DNA from: an uncultured Clostridia bacterium
GTDB lineage: Bacteria > Bacillota > Clostridia > Christensenellales > QALW01
NCBI GenBank assembly: GCA_958448705.1
Contig: CAUDEY010000009.1
Location: 3,010-67,009, forward strand
Length of the DNA stretch: 64,000 nt
Direction of reading: 5' to 3'
Shown here: positions 2,398 to 50,440 of the stretch, piece after piece
How the letters are laid out: the number at the start of each line of letters is the position of its first letter
How positions within the stretch are numbered: position 1 is the first letter of the stretch
Made by a program: the position numbers and the translations under genes
Notes under the pieces: model-generated
What the model was told of the DNA's origin: nothing
Seen by the model: only the letters and a program-made list of their open reading frames with translations
The model's database searches: none

Positions 2398-3900
2398 TTA
2401 TAGAATCACATATTCGGCCGAAAGCAGCTGAGCTACTTTTTCAAATAACGCGGCGTTTTTGCCTACGCTCATGGCCAAATGATGGGTGGGCGCATAGCGG
2501 AACCATTGGTCCATATAGCTGTCCGGGTCAGTTTTAAAACGGATGTGCGTCTGCGTATTTCCGATGGTTAAAATCGGGTGGCGGATGGCCTCGGCCTCGC
2601 TGATAATTATCCGTAGATTTCCCTCGGCAGTCTGGGTCAGCCCTAACAGGGTAACGTCGCCGGCCACGACGTTGGCCTCTACCGAAATGCCGCTGCCCTT
2701 TTTGCCGTGATAAACGCCCATGCCGCGCAGAACGGGCTTACCGTCGCTTATTTTAATATGGAAGGGACCGTCGTGCCCTAAAATAATACTGCCTACCACG
2801 TAATCGGTCGCTACGATTTCACAGAAGCTGCCGCCGGTATTTAAAATATCACAAATCTTCATCGCCACGCCGGTTTTGATGTCGCCTTCGCCTGCACAGG
2901 GGATGCCGGCCGCCGTTAAAAGCGAGTGGCCTACAATAAAGCCGGACTGCAGATCTTCATAGGGGTAGCCGTCGCTGCTGTGGTAGTAGTAGGAGAGCGC
3001 GTCTAAGTCATAGGCCTTTACCATCTTTTCCTGGGCACAGGCCACCTTGGCAGACCATTCCAGCTGCTGGGGCGTGGGCTTGCGCACCCGCGGATCAGAG
3101 GGGGAGTCTCCCTCAATGCGGAAGAAATCCGAAATAACGCTGAGCTTTTCCTGCACCTGGTCGGGGGTAACTTCATCCATATAGCGCTGAAGGTCGCACA
3201 TTTCCAAAATTTCCACATGCAGCCCTAACTGTGCCTGCAGCATGGTAAAATCGCTGTACATATCCAGCATACCGCTGTAGTTGTTGCCCAAAAAGCCCAT
3301 GCGGGTATGGCGCAGCGCCCGCTTTACGCCGGCGGCGCGCGTCCACTGCTCGATCTCCTTCCAGGCTTTTATGGCTTCGGGCCGGGCGGCAGTACATTCA
3401 TCGGAAACGGCAAAATCGGGCTGTTCTTCTAACCCCAGCAGACCGTTGACGATATGGCAGGGGATCCTGGCCCGGTTAAACGCGTTGGCGATTTCGGGAA
3501 TCGGGCAGGCTACGCACTGGGCCAGCCATTCGTCCGTAGAGGTTTTGGCATAGTTCATCTGCACGGCGGGCTGCAGGTTCAAGATCACCACAGGCGCTGT
3601 ACATTGCTGGTGCACCGGCAGTACGGTGGAGCTGGTAAAGTACGTGGCCGCATGGCAGAAAATCAGGTCCACGTTATGGCTGTTGAACCATTCGCCGGCG
3701 GCGCGGCCGCTGGTTTCGTCATCTACCAAGCCTAAGTTATAGACGTCCGCCCATTGCGAGATCTTGGCTTCAATAAAACGGTTATAGCAGAGCAGCCGTT
3801 CGCGCATGCCTTCGAATTGGGCCCAATAGGCATGCAGTCCTGCACTGTAAAGGCCGATTCGTGGCCGGGGCGAGGGTTTCAGCTTGGAAATTGTTTGCAT
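2398..3900 (-). CDS. L-arabinose isomerase (AraA/FucI superfamily) family protein
   Basis: 500 aa, the same length as AraA. Motifs align with E. coli AraA regions (AGEGDIKTG vs GEGDWKTA; APTHHLAMS vs GAHHTVFS). Confidence 0.75.
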   Translation of the reverse strand: MQTISKLKPSPRPRIGLYSAGLHAYWAQFEGMRERLLCYNRFIEAKISQWADVYNLGLVDDETSGRAAGEWFNSHNVDLIFCHAATYFTSSTVLPVHQQCTAPVVILNLQPAVQMNYAKTSTDEWLAQCVACPIPEIANAFNRARIPCHIVNGLLGLEEQPDFAVSDECTAARPEAIKAWKEIEQWTRAAGVKRALRHTRMGFLGNNYSGMLDMYSDFTMLQAQLGLHVEILEMCDLQRYMDEVTPDQVQEKLSVISDFFRIEGDSPSDPRVRKPTPQQLEWSAKVACAQEKMVKAYDLDALSYYYHSSDGYPYEDLQSGFIVGHSLLTAAGIPCAGEGDIKTGVAMKICDILNTGGSFCEIVATDYVVGSIILGHDGPFHIKISDGKPVLRGMGVYHGKKGSGISVEANVVAGDVTLLGLTQTAEGNLRIIISEAEAIRHPILTIGNTQTHIRFKTDPDSYMDQWFRYAPTHHLAMSVGKNAALFEKVAQLLSAEYVIL

Positions 3901-5197: not shown

Positions 5198-6046
5198 ATG
5201 TATCAGGAATATCATATGGATGTAGAGCCGCGCTCAATTTGGAAGATTGCGCCGGAGCTTTCTCCTCGGCAAAAAGCAAAGCCGCCGTTTTTGGCAATGG
5301 AGGCGGGCAAATTTTATGCAAGGGCGGAATATTTTACGGTTCGCCGGGATAAAAATGATAAGCTTTTATTGTTTACGGTTTCCGGTGCGGGGCGTATTTA
5401 TACGGAAGAAAAACAATATCTTTTGAAGGCGGGCGAAGGGACGATGATCGATTGCCGCAAATACCATCGCTATGAAACCGCCGGGAAGGAAGTTTGGCAA
5501 TTCTATTGGGTACATTTCCGGGGGGATGAAAACGGCTTTTATCAGGATCTGATCTGCCGGAATTCTAATATATGGGCTTACCCTAAAAAAACAACAGAAG
5601 CCCTGGAGGAACTGCTGGAGCAGATCCATTTTACCGACAGCCTTGCCCTTTCCCGGCGCAGCCACCTTTTAGAGAATCTGCTTTTTGCCGCCGGAGTTTC
5701 CCGGTCGGAGGCGCAGGGGACTTCCGCGGTACGCAGCGCGGTGGATATTGCGGTAAATTATATGCAGGCGCATTATGCGGAAAATCTGGGACTGGAGCAG
5801 CTGGCGGAGCAGGTACATTTATCCAAATATCATTTTCTTCGCTTGTTTAAAGACGCAATGCAGACGACACCGCATCAGTATCTGCTGATGCTGCGGGTCA
5901 ACGAGGCGAAGAAGCTTCTGCGCACCACAAATGAGAATTTAACGTCTGTTTGTGTGCGGACAGGCTTTGCCGATGAAGGACATTTCTGCCGCACGTTTAA
6001 ACGCATTACGGGTCAGACGCCTTACCAGTATCGGAGAACGATGTGA
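5198..6046 (+). CDS. AraC-family transcriptional regulator (cupin sensor + HTH)
   Basis: ATG at 5198 lies 5 nt after a GGAGGA RBS, and the ORF-track TTG at 5180 lacks an RBS. The C-terminal HTH_AraC signature is LSKYHFLRLFK...TGFADEGHFCRTFKRITGQTPYQYR. It is divergent from the 3912-5042 operon. Confidence 0.85.
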   Translation: MYQEYHMDVEPRSIWKIAPELSPRQKAKPPFLAMEAGKFYARAEYFTVRRDKNDKLLLFTVSGAGRIYTEEKQYLLKAGEGTMIDCRKYHRYETAGKEVWQFYWVHFRGDENGFYQDLICRNSNIWAYPKKTTEALEELLEQIHFTDSLALSRRSHLLENLLFAAGVSRSEAQGTSAVRSAVDIAVNYMQAHYAENLGLEQLAEQVHLSKYHFLRLFKDAMQTTPHQYLLMLRVNEAKKLLRTTNENLTSVCVRTGFADEGHFCRTFKRITGQTPYQYRRTM

Positions 6047-6063
6047 CCTAAAAACATAGTTTT

Positions 6064-6760
6064 CTCTCCCTCAGCCTCGCTGAAGCTCGGCAGCTCCCTC
6101 ATCAGAGGGAGCCGGGAGAAAGAAAATATGTCGGTTGTTTGGCAGAAGGGACCGAGAGGGCAAAAATCAATTTTTTTGCGCTCCAGGCTCCCCATGTCAG
6201 GGGAGCTGTTGCCGCAGGCGACGGAGGGGTGTGTGCGCTTTGCTTTTTCTCCTACAGCCTCGCGAATGCTCGGCAGCTCCCTCGTCAGAGGGAGCCGGCA
6301 AAAATCTGCCGGTTGTTTAGCAAAAGGAAGCGAAAGGGCAAAAATCAATTTTTTTGCGCTTCAGGCTCCCCATGTCAGGGGAGCTGGCGCCGCAGGCGAC
6401 TGAGGGGTAGTTTTAAGGTTCCTTTCTCTCCCACAGCCTCGCGAATGCTCGGCAGCTCCCTCATCAGAGGGAGCCGGGAGAAAAATCTGCCGGTTGTTTA
6501 GCAAAAGGAAGCGAGAGGGCAAAAATCAATTTTTTTGCGCTCCAGGCTCCCCATGTCAGGGGAGCTGTCGCCGCAGGCGACGGAGGGGTAGTGTGCGCTT
6601 TGCTTTCTCTCCCACAGCCTCGCTGAAGCTCGGCAGCTCCCTCATCAGAGGGAGCCGGGAGAAAAATCTGCCGGTTGTTTAGCAGAAGGAAGCGAGAGGG
6701 CAAAAATCAATTCTTTTGCGCTTCAGGCTCCCCATGTCAGGGGAGCTGTCGCCCCCGTAG
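6064..6760 (+). repeat. tandem array of ~3.9 copies of a ~181-bp modular palindromic unit (REP/BIME-like)
   Basis: The CAGCCT landmark recurs at 6072, 6255, 6434 and 6615, giving periods of 183, 179 and 181 bp. Each unit carries four hairpins: GCTCCCTC-ATCA-GAGGGAGC, GCAAAAA-TCAA-TTTTTGC, GCTCCCC-ATGTCA-GGGGAGC and GTCGCC-GCAG-GCGAC. Confidence 0.95.
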
Positions 6761-6762
6761 GC

Positions 6763-7314
6763 TGCGGGAAAACGGTATTGAGCCTCAGCGCGGCGCCAAG
6801 CAGGAGGGAGAAAAAAATAGGATTGCAGAGGCTCTTGCAGAGGCCTTGCTTTTTTTCTCCCCGGGGAATCAAAATCATTACGCCCCAAGTGTAAACGGCC
6901 AGGTTCAGCGGCAGAATATAGAGCATATACTGGTACAGAGCTTCTTTGCCTAAAATTGCTGGTACAATGGCGTTGCCCATAAAAGAAAAGTTTGCAAAGG
7001 AGAGCGCATAGCGATAGATCTTGCGCGGATAGGCGTCTTGGGTGAAAAGGCGCGAAAGCGGTTTTGCGATAACGAGCGCGATTGTCAGGATCAGCGCGCA
7101 ATAGAGAATCAGCTGATACTGCTGGCTGATGGAAGATACGGTGCAGTACTGCATAAAGGTACTGGGGATCAGCGCGGGTACAAAAAAATAATTTTTCAGT
7201 TTCGAAAGTATCTCGGCTGCGTTTTCGGGTATAAGACGCTTCTTTTTGACAGTAAAGACGGAGGGCCATGCATAAAAATATGACCAGCACAGGGGTAAAG
7301 GTGGTTTCCTGCAT
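6763..7314 (-). pseudogene. AEC-family (auxin efflux carrier-like) transporter pseudogene, frameshifted and 3'-truncated
   Basis: The ATG at 7314 has an RBS and gives MQETTFTPVLVIFL. AEC-like sequence then continues in another frame (VFTVKKKRLIPENAAEILSKL...MGNAIVPAILGKEALYQYMLYILPLNL...NPIFFSLLLGAALRL). It runs straight into the repeat array after ~180 codons, whereas family members are ~300 aa. Confidence 0.6.
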
Positions 7315-11835: not shown

Positions 11836-12428
11836 CAGGATTGTTTTGAAAAGGCAAAGCCGGCATTTTTGCCGGCTTCGCTGCTTTTTATGTGGAAGGA
11901 GCCCAACGGCCGGAATTGCGGCGGAAGCGTTTCCTCCTGCACGGGAAGGGGAAAATCGGAACCGATATAGATTACGCTTTCCGGGATATCGCTGGGCAGA
12001 TTGCTGATTTTTATGCGGTATTTGCCCTCGGGGACGGAAGCGCCGCGATATTCGCATACCGTTCGGTGCGGATATTTCTGATACAGGGAATCCCCCAGCT
12101 CTAAATTAATGCAGATAGCTATGCGGTAGGGGCCCAGTCCGTCGTCAGCGGTCAGCTTTTCTTCGCCGGTATCCCCGTACAGGGTCTCCTCCCCGGGATC
12201 CAGGATATACACGGCGCAGAAAACCTTTTTTTCAAAATATAAATGGTGAATGTTTCGGTAGGAAACCGTGATGGACAGCTCCCCCGCGGCCGTCTCCCGC
12301 AGCGTGATATTTTGCACATACCCTTCTTCCGCGGCAGCGATGTACAGGCCGATATGCAGGGCGGCAAGGCTGAGGGAGCAGAGGACGATCAGCGCTGTAA
12401 GGCCCGTGCGGCGCAGGAATTTTTTCAT
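11625..12428 (-). CDS. hypothetical N-terminally membrane-anchored or secreted protein, paralog 1 (3' end anomalous)
   Basis: ATG at 12428 follows an AAGGAG RBS. The signal/anchor is MKKFLRRTGLTALIVLCSLSLAAL. The protein is colinear with paralog 2 up to IYIGSDFPLP. There is no stop until 11625, so the ORF crosses the terminator and overlaps rrf2 by 211 bp. Confidence 0.55.
   Translation of the reverse strand: MKKFLRRTGLTALIVLCSLSLAALHIGLYIAAAEEGYVQNITLRETAAGELSITVSYRNIHHLYFEKKVFCAVYILDPGEETLYGDTGEEKLTADDGLGPYRIAICINLELGDSLYQKYPHRTVCEYRGASVPEGKYRIKISNLPSDIPESVIYIGSDFPLPVQEETLPPQFRPLGSFHIKSSEAGKNAGFAFSKQSCYCRSCCSVTPSKKSSIILSSFSHIGSVAQRPARAHRFGVPSRQATGAKEPSVSFRMLPTVYASGSRFSR
11857..11890. terminator. 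intrinsic terminator hairpin between the convergent rrf2 and 11625-12428 genes
   Basis: AAGCCGGC-attttt-GCCGGCTT followed by a T-run. The same hairpin is read through by the minus-strand ORF. Confidence 0.6.
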
Positions 12429-12440
12429 AAGCTTCTCCTT
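12342..12440 (-). repeat. 99-bp duplicated segment (RBS + signal-anchor codons), copy 1
   Basis: 96 of 99 nt are identical to 12933-13031, while the remainder of the two genes is strongly diverged. Confidence 0.9.
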
Positions 12441-12473: not shown

Positions 12474-13019
12474 TCAGCGCTCAAGCTCGATATATAAATT
12501 TCCGGCAGGCATATAGAGAAGCCCATGTTTTTCCTTAATTTCAAACGGCTCGTCGGAACCGATATAAATGCAGAGCAGCGAGTCATCCGGCTCAGTTACC
12601 AGCATTTTAAATTTTCCCTTGAGAGAGGGATTTAAAGTTTTTACATCGTATGCGGACCACCATCCGTCTGTAAGAGAAGGCGTTTGATGTTTATAAAGCC
12701 GTTCTCCCCGATTCGTATCTATAAAGAGAATTTCTATGCGGTATTTCCCTAAAACACCGGGATCTATTTTTCCGTCACCGACACTGAATTCTTCCCCTTC
12801 TTCCATCATATGCACCTCGTAATGCATCTTCTCAAAATACATATTATCATAGGAAACGGCGAGAACTAACCTGCCGAAAGGAGCGGAATGCAGTTTGACG
12901 TCCCAAACTTCATTGCTGTGCCCGCAGAAAAGGTACAGGCCGATATGCAGGGCGGCAAGGCTGAGGGAGCAGAGGATAATCAGCGCTGTGAGGCCCGTGC
13001 GGCGCAGGAATTTTTTCAT
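12474..13019 (-). CDS. hypothetical N-terminally membrane-anchored or secreted protein, paralog 2
   Basis: ATG at 13019 follows an AAGGAG RBS. The first ~30 aa are nearly identical to paralog 1. Shared landmarks are SY.N..FEK, GKYRI.I and IYIGSD.P. Confidence 0.65.
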   Translation of the reverse strand: MKKFLRRTGLTALIILCSLSLAALHIGLYLFCGHSNEVWDVKLHSAPFGRLVLAVSYDNMYFEKMHYEVHMMEEGEEFSVGDGKIDPGVLGKYRIEILFIDTNRGERLYKHQTPSLTDGWWSAYDVKTLNPSLKGKFKMLVTEPDDSLLCIYIGSDEPFEIKEKHGLLYMPAGNLYIELER

Positions 13020-13031
13020 AAGCTTCTCCTT
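12933..13031 (-). repeat. 99-bp duplicated segment (RBS + signal-anchor codons), copy 2
   Basis: 96 of 99 nt are identical to 12342-12440. Confidence 0.9.
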
Positions 13032-27556: not shown

Positions 27557-27810
27557 ACTGCTGCTTTTTGATGGGCTTGTTTTTGCAAAGGGATAATAGG
27601 CAAAATCGCCTGCAAACGTTGGAGGGAACAGCAGGGAAAACTGGAAAGAATTCCATTAGGGCCCGTTGCAGGAATGAAGATCTGCTGAAACGAGCGTTCT
27701 TCTGCCGGCGGAAGTTGAGGGGAATTTTTTATTAAGATGTATTGTAAAAATAGAGGCTGTAAAAACCTTTCGCTTCAAGGGAAGTGGGCTATGAAAGATT
27801 AAACCGCGCC

Positions 27811-27862
27811 AAGCCTGCCCTTAAAGCAGAAGGTGTCAAAACGCAAGTTTTGACGGAGGGAG
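27811..27862 (+). repeat. 52-nt palindromic repeat element (variant module), copy 1
   Basis: AAGCCTGCCCTTAAAGCAGAAGGTGTCAAAACGCAAGTTTTGACGGAGGGAG. It contains hairpin GTCAAAAC-GCAA-GTTTTGAC and matches 28085-28136 at 50 of 52 nt. Confidence 0.9.
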
Positions 27863-27954
27863 TGCGGCAGCCAAATTATGCGGCGCAGTTTATTTTCCTG
27901 CTTTCCCCGGTGTCCTTTCTCAGGTGTTACCGATAGGTTTGACGTTGCGCGATT

Positions 27955-28003
27955 CTCTCCCTCAGTCTCGCTTATGCTCGACGGCTCCTCATCAGAAGGC
28001 GCC
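27955..28003 (+). repeat. degenerate copy of the A module of the 6064-6760 repeat family
   Basis: CTCTCCCTCAGTCTCGCTTATGCTCGACGGCTCCTCATCAGAAGGCGCC aligns with CTCTCCCTCAGCCTCGCTGAAGCTCGGCAGCTCCCTCATCAGAGGGAGCC. Confidence 0.8.
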
Positions 28004-28084
28004 AAAAAAGATGCGGTATTATCTGCGGAAATAGAGTATAAAGCTGCGTTCTATTGATACTCCGAAACAGATCGCAAGAGCAAC

Positions 28085-28136
28085 AAGCCTTCCCTTGAAG
28101 CAGAAGGTGTCAAAACGCAAGTTTTGACGGAGGGAG
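28085..28136 (+). repeat. 52-nt palindromic repeat element (variant module), copy 2
   Basis: 50 of 52 nt are identical to 27811-27862, in direct orientation 274 bp apart. Confidence 0.9.
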
Positions 28137-28341
28137 AGAAAGAGCAAAAATTAAATTGATGCTGAATTTCCGCGGCTTCCTCATTTTGCGGCTATTTGCC
28201 GGCATTTCTTGTTAAAGGACGCCGGGCAAGCGAATATATTTATGCATGGCCGTTTTTTTTGCAAGAAAGGCAGGGGAGCTTCTGTTTTATGGCATCCTGG
28301 GCATCCCTGCGGCTATTTTTTATGATAAGGAGTTTTGAGCG

Positions 28342-41081: not shown

Positions 41082-41322
41082 ATGGATGGAAAACCGGGAG
41101 ACAGCCGCGCGGAGGAAGCGGGCTTTAGCGATAAAAAGAAATACAAAGGAAGAAAGAAAAAATATGGCGAGCCTCCTCTTGGATCGGGAGGCGGCTTTTA
41201 CGGAGTAAAAAGCCGCAGGGAAAGAATGCAAAACTACGCCTCAGCCGGTTATCACCGGCGGCTTGTTTCCGGGTAGCCGTTGTATACGAAAAATCACAGG
41301 ACAGCCGGGAGAAAACGGGGAA

Positions 41323-46385: not shown

Positions 46386-46414
46386 ACTGCCGGCGCCTTC
46401 GTCAGAGGGATCCG
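46386..46414 (+). repeat. solo degenerate A-module remnant of the palindromic repeat family
   Basis: ACTGCCGGCGCCTTCGTCAGAGGGATCC compared with GCTCGGCAGCTCCCTCGTCAGAGGGAGCC. Confidence 0.5.
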
Positions 46415-50090: not shown

Positions 50091-50440
50091 GGCTTTCTCT
50101 GACGAGGAGAGCCTGCTCATATGTTATTTCTCTTGGCTCCCTCTGACGAGGGAGCTGGCGAGCGTCAGCGAGACGGAGGGAGAGACTTGCAGCAGAGCAA
50201 GGGATCACTACTCCTGAGCCGCCTGCGGCGGCAGCTCCCCTAACAAGGGGAGCCTGTTTATATGTAGTTTCTCTTGGCTCCCTCTGATGAGGGAGCTGGC
50301 GAGCGGCAGCGAGACGGAGGGAGAGACTTGCAGCAGAGCAAGGGATCACTACCCCTGAGCCGCCTGCGGCGGCAGCTCCCCTGACAAGGGGAGCCTGCTC
50401 GTGTGTAGTTTCTCTTGGTTGCCTCTGATAAGGGAGGCAA
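50091..50440 (-). repeat. tandem array of ~2.5 copies (141-bp period) of the same palindromic repeat family, inverted relative to 6064-6760
   Basis: GGCTCCCTCTGA(C/T)GAGGGAGCTGGCGAGCG.CAGCGAGACGGAGGGAGAG lies at 50135 and 50276, with a partial copy at 50417. It alternates with AC.CCTGAGCCGCCTGCGGCGGCAGCTCCCCT.ACAAGGGGAGCC. These are reverse complements of the A and B modules of the first array. Confidence 0.92.

Follow-up and report, generated by a model that had tools for sequence, protein, structure and literature searches.

BoxC repeats of Escherichia coli, also described as PIT or TMECO elements (Hoyne/Maher 2000; Holder et al. 2015), follow the layout CCCTCTCCC-loop-GGGAGAGGG-loop-GGGTGAGGG, form a triplex in vitro and are present in 23 copies in MG1655 (PMC4666352). 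They mark rearrangement-prone loci and often occur as inverted pairs, always joining type A with type B, and the authors of the same study state that 'we never found ... remnants of transposases or integrases' (PMC4666352). Since the 1990s these repeats have stood with no origin, function or mobility gene assigned to them. The DUF559 proteins, a very large family that has no assigned function, are grouped with Vsr and 3r3p in a Pfam-based classification (PMC3424549); 3R3P is the catalytic domain of the homing endonuclease I-Bth0305I, whose cleavage of a pseudopalindromic duplex site produces 5′ overhangs of 2 nt (PMC3239194). Here we describe a tandem array of ∼181-bp units that lies directly behind an AraC-family regulator gene in a 64,000-nt segment of an uncultured Clostridia bacterium (contig CAUDEY010000009.1, GenBank assembly GCA_958448705.1; this whole segment is referred to as the window), and we connect it to both families. 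The reading we favor, at a probability of about 0.65, is that the array arose by tandem amplification of gene-less inverted doublets of a structured module, and that the gene-bearing relative of these doublets is a DUF559 element which mobilises them. In our literature search DUF559/YcjD appeared only as a predicted Vsr-like nuclease grouped with I-Bth0305I and with no link to repeats, and neither this element nor a DUF559-repeat link was found described, in Clostridia or otherwise, which agrees with an initial annotation of the region that knew of no functional description of such arrays in Clostridia.

The 181-bp unit is an inverted pair of modules plus a spacer

Tandem Repeats Finder places the array at 6061–6753 (period 181, 3.8 copies, 89% matches, score 1124), with its start ∼16–17 nt past the stop codon (6046) of the AraC-family gene. 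The four units announced by the initial annotation are thus present, at start-to-start distances of 183, 179 and 181 nt, and so are the hairpins it quoted: GCTCCCTC-NNNN-GAGGGAGC is found 6 times in the window where 0.02 are expected, GCTCCCC-N6-GGGGAGC (with up to 2 mismatches) 12 times where 0.25 are expected, and the AT hairpin (6160–6179) and the GTCGCC/GGCGAC hairpin both occur and both fold. A covariance model (R1, built with Infernal from 59 distinct A-type copies of other species) matches the four A modules on the minus strand with 49–65 bits and, full-length, the four B modules on the plus strand with 26–41 bits; the B-type modules were missed by an nhmmer profile. As a single model fits A on one strand and B on the other, B is indeed an inverted, diverged A, the 181-bp unit is an inverted module pair plus a spacer, and the array consists of eight modules in alternating orientation.

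The array opens with the single, unpaired module A1 (6062–6116, minus strand; 64.6 bits, E 1e-15), which carries the outer hairpin GCTCCCTC/GAGGGAGC, an inner hairpin with tandem G.A pairs and the tail CTGAGGGAGAGA. Three doublets follow. Doublet 1 (6183–6299) joins B1 (6183–6235, plus) and A2 (6245–6299, minus; 29.4 and 49.2 bits) tail-to-tail across a 9-nt spacer and so forms a mini-element with no gene, doublet 2 (6361–6478) is composed of B2 (6361–6412, plus) and A3 (6424–6478, minus; 40.9 and 58.1 bits), and doublet 3 (6542–6659) of B3 (6542–6593, plus) and A4 (6605–6659, minus; 38 and 59.5 bits). The array ends with the degenerate module B4 (6723–6774, plus; 26.5 bits), which has GTCGCCCCCGTAGGCTGCGGG in place of inner hairpin and tail.

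By fold and repeat analysis, A1 and doublet 1 are separated by a 66-nt head-to-head spacer (6117–6182) that contains the AT hairpin and recurs at 6300–6360, 6479–6541 and 6660–6722 within the tandem duplication unit. The initial annotation was correct that this spacer is repeated and holds an AT hairpin; it is not part of the dispersed module, however, because it is absent from a second array near 50 kb and from other species, and its conservation follows from the tandem duplication of the whole 181-bp unit. Besides the AT hairpin, the inter-doublet spacers hold a minus-strand terminator-like hairpin, TCTGCTAAACAACCGGCAGA, followed by TTTTT (6667–6686 and equivalents). [quoted passage not shown]

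Covariation within the module points to an intrastrand triplex

Flank alignment across species defines a sharply bounded module of ∼52 nt. Read 5′ to 3′ on its folding strand, it begins with an outer hairpin, G-GCTCCCTC-TGAY-GAGGGAGC-TG, continues into an inner hairpin that is variable and ends in a purine tail, CTGAGGGAGAGA or (C)TGAGGGAGAGA, with the consensus GAGGGAG. Folded as single-stranded DNA with ViennaRNA, which does not model triplexes, each module gives two adjacent hairpins and an unpaired tail (z −2.4 to −3.5). The inner hairpin is represented by 91 distinct sequences, pairs perfectly in almost all of them and covaries at 5/5 modelled pairs. The outer hairpin was scored on model-based alignments, where the search pattern no longer fixes it; double changes are found in 7/8 pairs, 98.7% of cells pair and 0/500 shuffles reach the observed score. 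On the folding strand 75/146 modules of one end type and 25/57 of the other have C-GNA-G triloops, with C-TNC-G in 0, and the recurrent internal TC/TC mismatches there read as tandem G.A pairs. In each module it is therefore one given strand that is under hairpin-stability constraint.

The tail had been regarded as mere flank in the initial annotation, a view that does not hold, as the tail (GAGGGAGAGA) covaries with the purine arm of the outer hairpin as its mirror image. Among 56 modules with asymmetric arms (30 loci) the mirror fits better in 47, the direct copy in 0 and both equally in 9, and the mean compatibility of tail and arm is 6.30 of 7 for the mirror versus 4.25 for the direct arrangement, with the observed value reached by 0/2000 shuffles. 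The mirror pairs include arm AGGGGAG with tail GAGGGG(T/A/C) (n = 11), AAGGGAG with GAGGGAT (n = 10), GAGGGGG with GGGGGAG (n = 9), and GGGAGAG with GAGAGGG and GAGGAAG with GAAGGAG (n = 2 each), and the B subtype of the window is itself informative, with arm GGGGAG and tail GAGGGG. A duplex A is covered by A or T in the tail and a duplex G by G. The alternative that the tail serves as a second Watson-Crick partner of the pyrimidine arm, in the manner of an anti-Shine-Dalgarno switch, is ruled out, as the variant tails are mirror and not direct copies.

Judged from these alignments, the mirror covariation follows the rules of an intrastrand DNA triplex of the antiparallel purine-motif type, of which E. 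coli BoxC/TMECO is an example, and the module is therefore grouped with the BoxC/PIT/TMECO triplex repeats and not with the repetitive extragenic palindromes (REPs). In the proposed fold the outer hairpin would provide a pyrimidine-purine duplex, the tail would fold back antiparallel on the purine arm as third strand through G*G-C, A*A-T and T*A-T triads, and the inner hairpin, usually C-GNA-G-closed, would act as the connecting loop of the triplex. To our knowledge such covariation is rare comparative evidence for in vivo selection on a DNA triple helix.

The module is dispersed among gut Clostridia as inverted doublets

With the A-module core as query and each species represented by one genome, at least 120 loci were obtained, and R1, a covariance model of the kind suggested by the initial annotation, made 286 matches, 273 after cleaning, in these loci and the window, so that the element is not confined to the latter. 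Among the matches listed nearly all hosts are gut or rumen Oscillospirales (Acutalibacteraceae, Oscillospiraceae, Ruminococcaceae, Faecousia, Fimenecus, Sporobacter), with a few matches in Bifidobacterium and Butyrivibrio and one in a metagenome-assembled genome of Zoogloeaceae; many matches lie at contig ends. For neighbouring modules at most 150 nt apart in these loci (n = 109 pairs), 76 are tail-to-tail, mostly 14–30 nt apart, 24 head-to-head and 9 in the same orientation, i.e. 100/109 are inverted. The inverted, alternating organisation that the initial annotation compared with bacterial interspersed mosaic elements (BIMEs) and with REP doublets forming hairpins (REPINs) is thereby confirmed. 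A metagenome scan with the window-specific B hairpin returned 3 loci only and no autonomous copy.

Several related sequences were observed alongside. The JGI contig Ga0310694_10000046 (locus L132, ∼900–1300) carries several closely spaced copies of a sister repeat family of like architecture and other sequence, GCCTCCCCT-GTGT-AAGGGAAGG with inner hairpin TCCTTGC..GCAAGGA and tail CGAAGGGATTGT, which suggests that gut Clostridia harbour a superfamily of these modules. A GC-rich variant (tail GAGGGTGCC, loop TTCA) is found in loci L058, L082 and L104, the last of which, from Clostridiales bacterium SIG359, is very dense in it (8 exact core matches and 26 nhmmer matches in 8 kb). A partly conserved palindromic motif, ACAAA-N5-7-TTTGT, lies in the right flank, 20–40 nt past the doublet, in L042, L057, L087, L093, L113 and L130 and may be an operator or an orthologous site.

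Paired modules bracket a DUF559 nuclease gene

When all open reading frames (ORFs) in ∼0.9 Mb of flanking sequence from the at least 120 species loci were clustered, the sole recurrent neighbour family among the loci listed was a DUF559 nuclease of ∼115–133 aa, with 12 ORFs in 12 loci at a median distance of 0, and 14 loci by tblastn. Its members belong to PF04480 (95–109 bits versus a 20.6-bit cutoff, E 1e-27 to 1e-31) and share the invariant residues D50, E61, D63, H67, D76, R79, R92 and N95. Their closest fold is the catalytic domain of I-Bth0305I (PDB 3R3P; Foldseek E 8.7e-5, TM 0.79–0.80; hidden Markov model E 0.012), followed by 3HRL, the DUF559 protein NGO0050 (E 6.5e-20), with Vsr more distant.

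Eight full-length copies, each from a different species, align over ∼455 bp and end sharply at the left and right outer hairpins, beyond which the flanks are unrelated. In all eight the DUF559 gene lies between a plus- and a minus-strand module whose tails point inward. The left tail places GGAGG ∼8 nt 5′ of the start codon, and the ORF extends into the right module, which adds a C-terminal peptide, SLPQSASLTAPSSEGA, that is predicted to be disordered and is lacking in some copies. The gene is under purifying selection (median pN 0.18 vs pS 0.81). Left-end and right-end types pair in the elements of other species, and the two bases flanking each element end are A/T in 78–87%. One convincing gene remnant was found in a doublet spacer, 25 nt of the DUF559 3′ end in L056. 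In L046 (∼3420) an in-frame TAG replaces a conserved Trp codon, which makes this copy a pseudogene.

These data suggest a mechanism in which two inverted modules with inward tails would be the terminal inverted repeats of a ∼455-bp element, found in related Oscillospirales, that has DUF559 as its sole gene, with the left tail as the source of the Shine-Dalgarno sequence and the gene reading into the right module. The short doublets of the window would be non-autonomous, gene-less versions, similar to miniature inverted-repeat transposable elements (MITEs) or REPINs. The nuclease would recognise the folded ends, cut or nick them and copy or move elements and doublets in trans.

The arrays vary in copy number between strains

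The variation between strains anticipated by the initial annotation is found at both arrays. At the 6-kb locus, independent contigs of 54–312 kb from the same species hold three units (L153, L154, L155 and L158) or four (L156, L159 and L160, as in the window), and a contig with ∼1x coverage holds one; the truncated B4 copy forms the array end in the 1-, 3- and 4-unit alleles alike. At the 50-kb locus one doublet is present in L138, L139 and L140, two in the window and three in L141. Since the inter-doublet spacer is duplicated together with the modules, growth proceeds by tandem duplication of doublet plus spacer and not by repeated insertion. The differences between strains would then be due to unequal recombination or replication slippage between modules, by which arrays may expand and contract, promoted by non-B DNA structure.

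The same property disturbs assembly. An identical AraC-family protein is encoded on at least 22 contigs, most of which terminate ∼55–95 nt beyond its stop codon, within the repeat, and a 312-kb scaffold of the same species (L157) has a run of N inside the array (∼3190–3290), so that even scaffolded assemblies do not resolve it. Modules thus break short-read assemblies of abundant gut Oscillospirales and create spurious ORFs, and loci of variable copy number are possible strain-typing markers.

DUF559 genes lie beside triplex motifs in several phyla

E. coli YcjD is 41–51% identical to the element proteins. The ycjD stop codon lies inside a degenerate BoxC arm, and one BoxC copy is situated 168 nt downstream of ycjD, the DUF559 gene of this genome; the sequence of BoxC #9 recurs at dispersed positions, the median being 18 per genome across all 5426 genomes. 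Between ycjD and BoxC #9 there is a second DUF559 C-terminal fragment (NMETVLENIRQGLNRPS, L134 5314–5364), 76% identical to YcjD residues 98–114, which looks like a remnant of another DUF559 gene beside a triplex repeat. A perfect 17-bp inverted repeat unrelated to BoxC, TCACCTCATTCTGACAA-N11-TTGTCAGAATGAGGTGA, overlaps the ycjD start codon in K-12 (L134 5758–5802) and could be an operator or a translational hairpin.

Pyrimidine-purine-purine mirror motifs were also found near 6/8 DUF559 genes from a plasmid collection of unrelated bacteria. On pDEIPR03 of Deinococcus proteolyticus the sole 2 motifs in 50 kb sit 18 nt and 3 nt from the DUF559 gene, and in Sphingomonas a stretch of 50 kb has 11 motifs, 7 of them no more than 120 nt from the DUF559 gene, on both sides, the remaining ones forming two gene-less inverted pairs, one of them with hairpin-containing second loops. 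In Sinorhizobium, too, motifs near the gene have a hairpin as loop 2, and motifs near a DUF559 gene occur in Pseudanabaena, Synechocystis and N. gonorrhoeae. Two tail-to-tail doublets with a 281-nt period are seen ∼170 nt downstream of NGO0050 in N. gonorrhoeae (L145 1084–1497), where a perfect mirror motif, CTCTCTCCC-TGT-GGGAGAGAG-CTA-GAGAGAGGG, is paired with CCCTCCCC-YGTG-GGGGAGGG-CTG-GGGAGAGG. The Deinococcus gene and its two flanking motifs stand alone and antisense inside the hpaB-hpaE catabolic operon (L150 38453–38877), like a discrete insertion.

Alternative explanations

Several observations weigh against amplification of doublets mobilised by a DUF559 element. The DUF559 gene is absent from the 64-kb window, so a copy would presumably reside elsewhere in that genome, and most doublet spacers are without trace of the gene. 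Around 62 elements there is no target-site duplication, direct repeats of at least 3 nt being absent, and no empty site was found; the module site at 27.8 kb in the window is fixed, being the same in three other assemblies with no presence/absence polymorphism. Assigning the window's A and B subtypes to left and right ends by their tail base (T/G) gives inconsistent results between the two arrays. The mirror counts are partly dependent, as modules within a genome share ancestry (16 distinct combinations are mirror, 0 direct and 9 tied), and a triplex with a hairpin of ∼11–30 nt as loop 2 is so far a proposal from comparison. Outside the Clostridia, E. coli offers a partial case that was noticed post hoc, 2/8 plasmid-borne DUF559 genes have no motif within 600 nt, and motif orientation varies, the tails facing the gene in Oscillospirales and Sphingomonas and the heads in Deinococcus. 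We know of no DUF559 protein with reported biochemical activity on such ends.

Part of this would also be accounted for if DUF559 were a free-standing homing endonuclease that has invaded a pre-existing repeat. In such a model the doublets are primary, being spread or kept by another mechanism or a host function, and the nuclease has its target midway in an empty doublet, where repair of the break with the modules as homology arms inserts a copy of the gene. Of the characterised proteins the nearest relative is a homing endonuclease, the position of the gene is precisely the tail-to-tail spacer, the gene-free spacers would be expected, the C-terminal peptide read from the right module is predicted to be disordered and is not shared by all copies, and Holder et al. 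saw no mobility gene near most BoxC copies (PMC4666352). However, homing leaves the dispersal of modules across genomes and phyla unexplained. That the left tail supplies the gene's Shine-Dalgarno sequence, and that the same arrangement recurs in many species between unrelated flanks, suggests a co-adapted unit, and the 25 nt of the gene's 3′ end kept by the L056 doublet are expected of a deletion derivative. In Deinococcus, moreover, the only two motifs in 50 kb bracket the gene, with no empty doublets nearby. We consider the homing model unlikely, though it is the alternative to be taken most seriously.

If the repeats instead acted at the RNA level, the hairpins would be 3′-UTR (untranslated region) stabilisers, terminators, processing sites or small RNAs, and the arrays would tune flanking genes; roles as stabiliser or terminator had been raised in the initial annotation. 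Many copies do lie just 3′ of genes, as here 17 nt past AraC, strong hairpin covariation is what functional RNAs typically show, the orientation of singletons between co-directional genes is weakly biased (12 vs 4), and REP, BOX and ERIC elements affect mRNA stability. But orientation alternates, so half of the modules are present as their complement in any transcript, and the GNA triloops and tandem G.A pairs of the two ends lie on opposite strands of the element, so that no single transcript folds both. The hairpins are not followed by T-runs. The sole convincing plus-strand terminator-like site, a hairpin with a T-run at 6828–6847 found by the terminator scan, lies 3′ of the array and is the probable real terminator of the AraC transcript; the count of terminator-like sites in the array region is not above that in shuffles. 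Modules show no clear avoidance of promoter regions, divergent ones included, and Rfam 15 gives 0 matches in the whole window at the gathering threshold and only noise in E-value mode. The mirror tail, besides excluding the Watson-Crick alternative, fits a purine-motif triplex, a DNA feature reported not to form in RNA (PMC4666352), and work by Maher and colleagues, in the form in which PMC4666352 cites it, attributes neither promoter nor terminator activity to BoxC. An RNA-level element is therefore improbable. A hammerhead ribozyme or C/D box, suggested by CUGAUGAG in a minus-strand hairpin loop, was considered separately and rejected, as stem II and the GAAA core are missing and the sR24 matches are noise.

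Less probable still is a REP/BIME-REPIN system mobilised from elsewhere in the genome by a REP-associated tyrosine transposase (RAYT), an IS200/IS605-type Y1 enzyme of the HUH class. Inverted doublets, alternating clusters, GC-rich extragenic hairpins and the lack of target duplication match the features given for such systems (PMC2817692 and PMC3333891). Yet no Y1 transposase, for which the initial annotation had advised a search, recurs near modules in the ∼0.9 Mb flanking the loci listed, DUF559 occupies the place between inverted modules by which a RAYT is defined, and the module is two hairpins plus a third strand, where a REP is one imperfect palindrome of ∼35 nt that has a 5′ guide of the GTAG type. 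From the bracketed gene and the repeat anatomy in these loci, REP-RAYT membership is rejected. Finally, a local duplication or assembly artefact of no wider meaning can practically be dismissed: short-read contigs often break or collapse here, most ending in the repeat, with one N-gap and the 1-unit allele at ∼1x coverage, but the window has modules at 4–5 sites and at least 120 species share them, alleles of 3 and of 4 units are each seen repeatedly on independent 54–312 kb contigs, and covariation across species cannot come from an artefact.

The linkage seen in Bacillota, Deinococcota and Alphaproteobacteria, and in part in Beta- and Gammaproteobacteria and Cyanobacteria, gives the BoxC/PIT/TMECO repeats a candidate enzyme and merges their question with that of DUF559, a subfamily of which, the one found here, alone comprises at least 8000 clusters at 90% identity, into one testable hypothesis. 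We propose tentatively, and with more doubt than confidence, that DUF559 nucleases are the cognate enzymes of BoxC/PIT/TMECO-type triplex repeats throughout Bacteria and with them make up an unrecognised class of selfish elements. The terminal inverted repeats of such elements would act as folded triplex-plus-hairpin DNA and not as duplex sequence, in an analogue of REP-RAYT built on a Vsr-fold nuclease. This would account for the origin of BoxC and its instability between E. coli strains, where ycjD would encode the resident enzyme, and for the abundant 'hypothetical' repeat-derived ORFs in gut Clostridia. A nuclease of small size with a folded DNA structure as its substrate would also be a possible tool.

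Further copies and neighbouring features in the window

The second array (50092–50436; R1 matches and repeat analysis) consists of the same modules with other, shorter spacers. Tandem Repeats Finder reports it at 50105–50436 with a period of 141, and its modules are the reverse complement of those at 6 kb: A′ modules on the plus strand (50132–50186 and 50273–50327), B′ modules on the minus strand (50207–50257 and 50347–50398) and degenerate ends recognised by sequence (50092–50112 and 50414–50436), with spacers of 20 nt tail-to-tail and 15 nt head-to-head. Three diverged modules occupy 27810–28140 (27810–27866, plus; 27953–28006, minus; 28084–28140, plus; R1 17.3, 38.9 and 27.6 bits), of which the plus-strand copies have an AT-rich inner hairpin, GTCAAAAC-GCAA-GTTTTGAC, as in the left ends of full-length elements. 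A possible decayed module on the plus strand at 41168–41226 (GCCTCCTC..GGGAGGC, GGCTTTT..AAAAGCC, GCAGGGAAAGA) and its weaker minus-strand partner at 41232–41281 are below significance (R1 E 0.37 and 0.14 for the pair), and the hairpin scan found an outer-hairpin fragment on the plus strand at 46389–46413 (GCCGGCGCCTTCGTCAGAGGGATCC).

The AraC-family gene upstream of the 6-kb array (5198–6046, plus; Pfam HTH_18 3.5e-24, HTH_AraC and AraC_binding) is context and lies outside the element. On the other side the array adjoins a remnant of a Mem_trans/AEC membrane-transporter gene (6723–7154, minus; PF03547, profile positions 60–155 of 343), whose match of 25.5 bits is marginally under the 25.7-bit cutoff. 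The transporter ORF (6723–7154 and 6679–7314, both minus) runs into the repeat and looks cut at the array boundary; with the Pfam match being marginal, such a truncated gene would fit the rearrangement-prone character of BoxC loci. A 99-nt direct repeat elsewhere in the window (12342–12440 and 12933–13031, 97% identical, 591 nt apart) covers the apparent 5′ ends of two neighbouring minus-strand genes (…AAGGAGAAGCTTATGAAAAAATTCCTG… in reverse complement), is probably due to a tandem paralogue pair, and has both of its copies in L131 as well.

Comparison with known systems

With regard to architecture the elements resemble REPs, BIMEs and REPINs, as they are inverted hairpin doublets in alternating clusters with variable linkers, are extragenic and of high copy number, cause no target duplications, and include a small gene between two inverted repeats, the presumed cognate enzyme, that is far outnumbered by gene-less doublets. 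In contrast to RAYTs the bracketed gene encodes a PD-(D/E)XK (Vsr-fold) nuclease and not an HUH Y1 transposase, the module is a ∼52-nt arrangement of two hairpins and a third strand and not a single palindrome of 20–40 nt with a conserved 5′ tetranucleotide, and its covariation indicates a triplex. They share with MITEs such as Correia, ERIC, RUP and BOX that they are short, intergenic and non-autonomous, have terminal inverted repeats, break short-read assemblies and are paired with a longer gene-bearing element, the eight ∼455-bp copies having both ends in common with the gene-less doublets; they differ in the lack of target-site duplication, in a partner gene that is not a DDE transposase and in terminal repeats that are internally structured and triplex-capable. 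I-Bth0305I, of the EDxHD/Vsr-like type, has the closest solved fold and is likewise the enzyme of a selfish element, but it belongs to a group I intron and has an N-terminal NUMOD/helix-turn-helix DNA-binding region, whereas the DUF559 protein is essentially the catalytic domain alone, free-standing and bracketed by structured repeats.

The closest likeness is to BoxC/TMECO. Both are built from a pyrimidine arm, a loop, the complementary purine arm, a second loop and a mirror purine arm (class II purine motif), both have G/C-rich copies scattered over intergenic sites, and both occupy loci that are unusually variable among strains. Four of five E. coli pairs are tail-to-tail, 16–27 nt apart (PMC4666352), and in both cases inverted pairs combine two subtypes, A and B always being paired in the two arrays of the window. 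The differences lie in the second loop, 3 nt in BoxC and a covarying hairpin of ∼11–30 nt here (loop 1 being 4–6 nt here), in arms of 7–8 nt (CTCCCTC) here versus 9 nt in BoxC (CCCTCTCCC), in Bacillota here versus Proteobacteria as hosts, in arrays that reach 8 modules in tandem, and in the DUF559 gene between paired modules in many species, none being associated in the BoxC literature. The TMECO consensus, CCCTCNCCC-N3-6-GGGNGAGGG-N3-GGGNGAGGG with loops of 1–6 nt, does not describe the module, which makes it a variant and not TMECO proper. The element is best filed as a BoxC-like triplex repeat variant whose second loop is structured, whose full-length form carries a gene and whose DUF559 partner had so far gone unrecognised.

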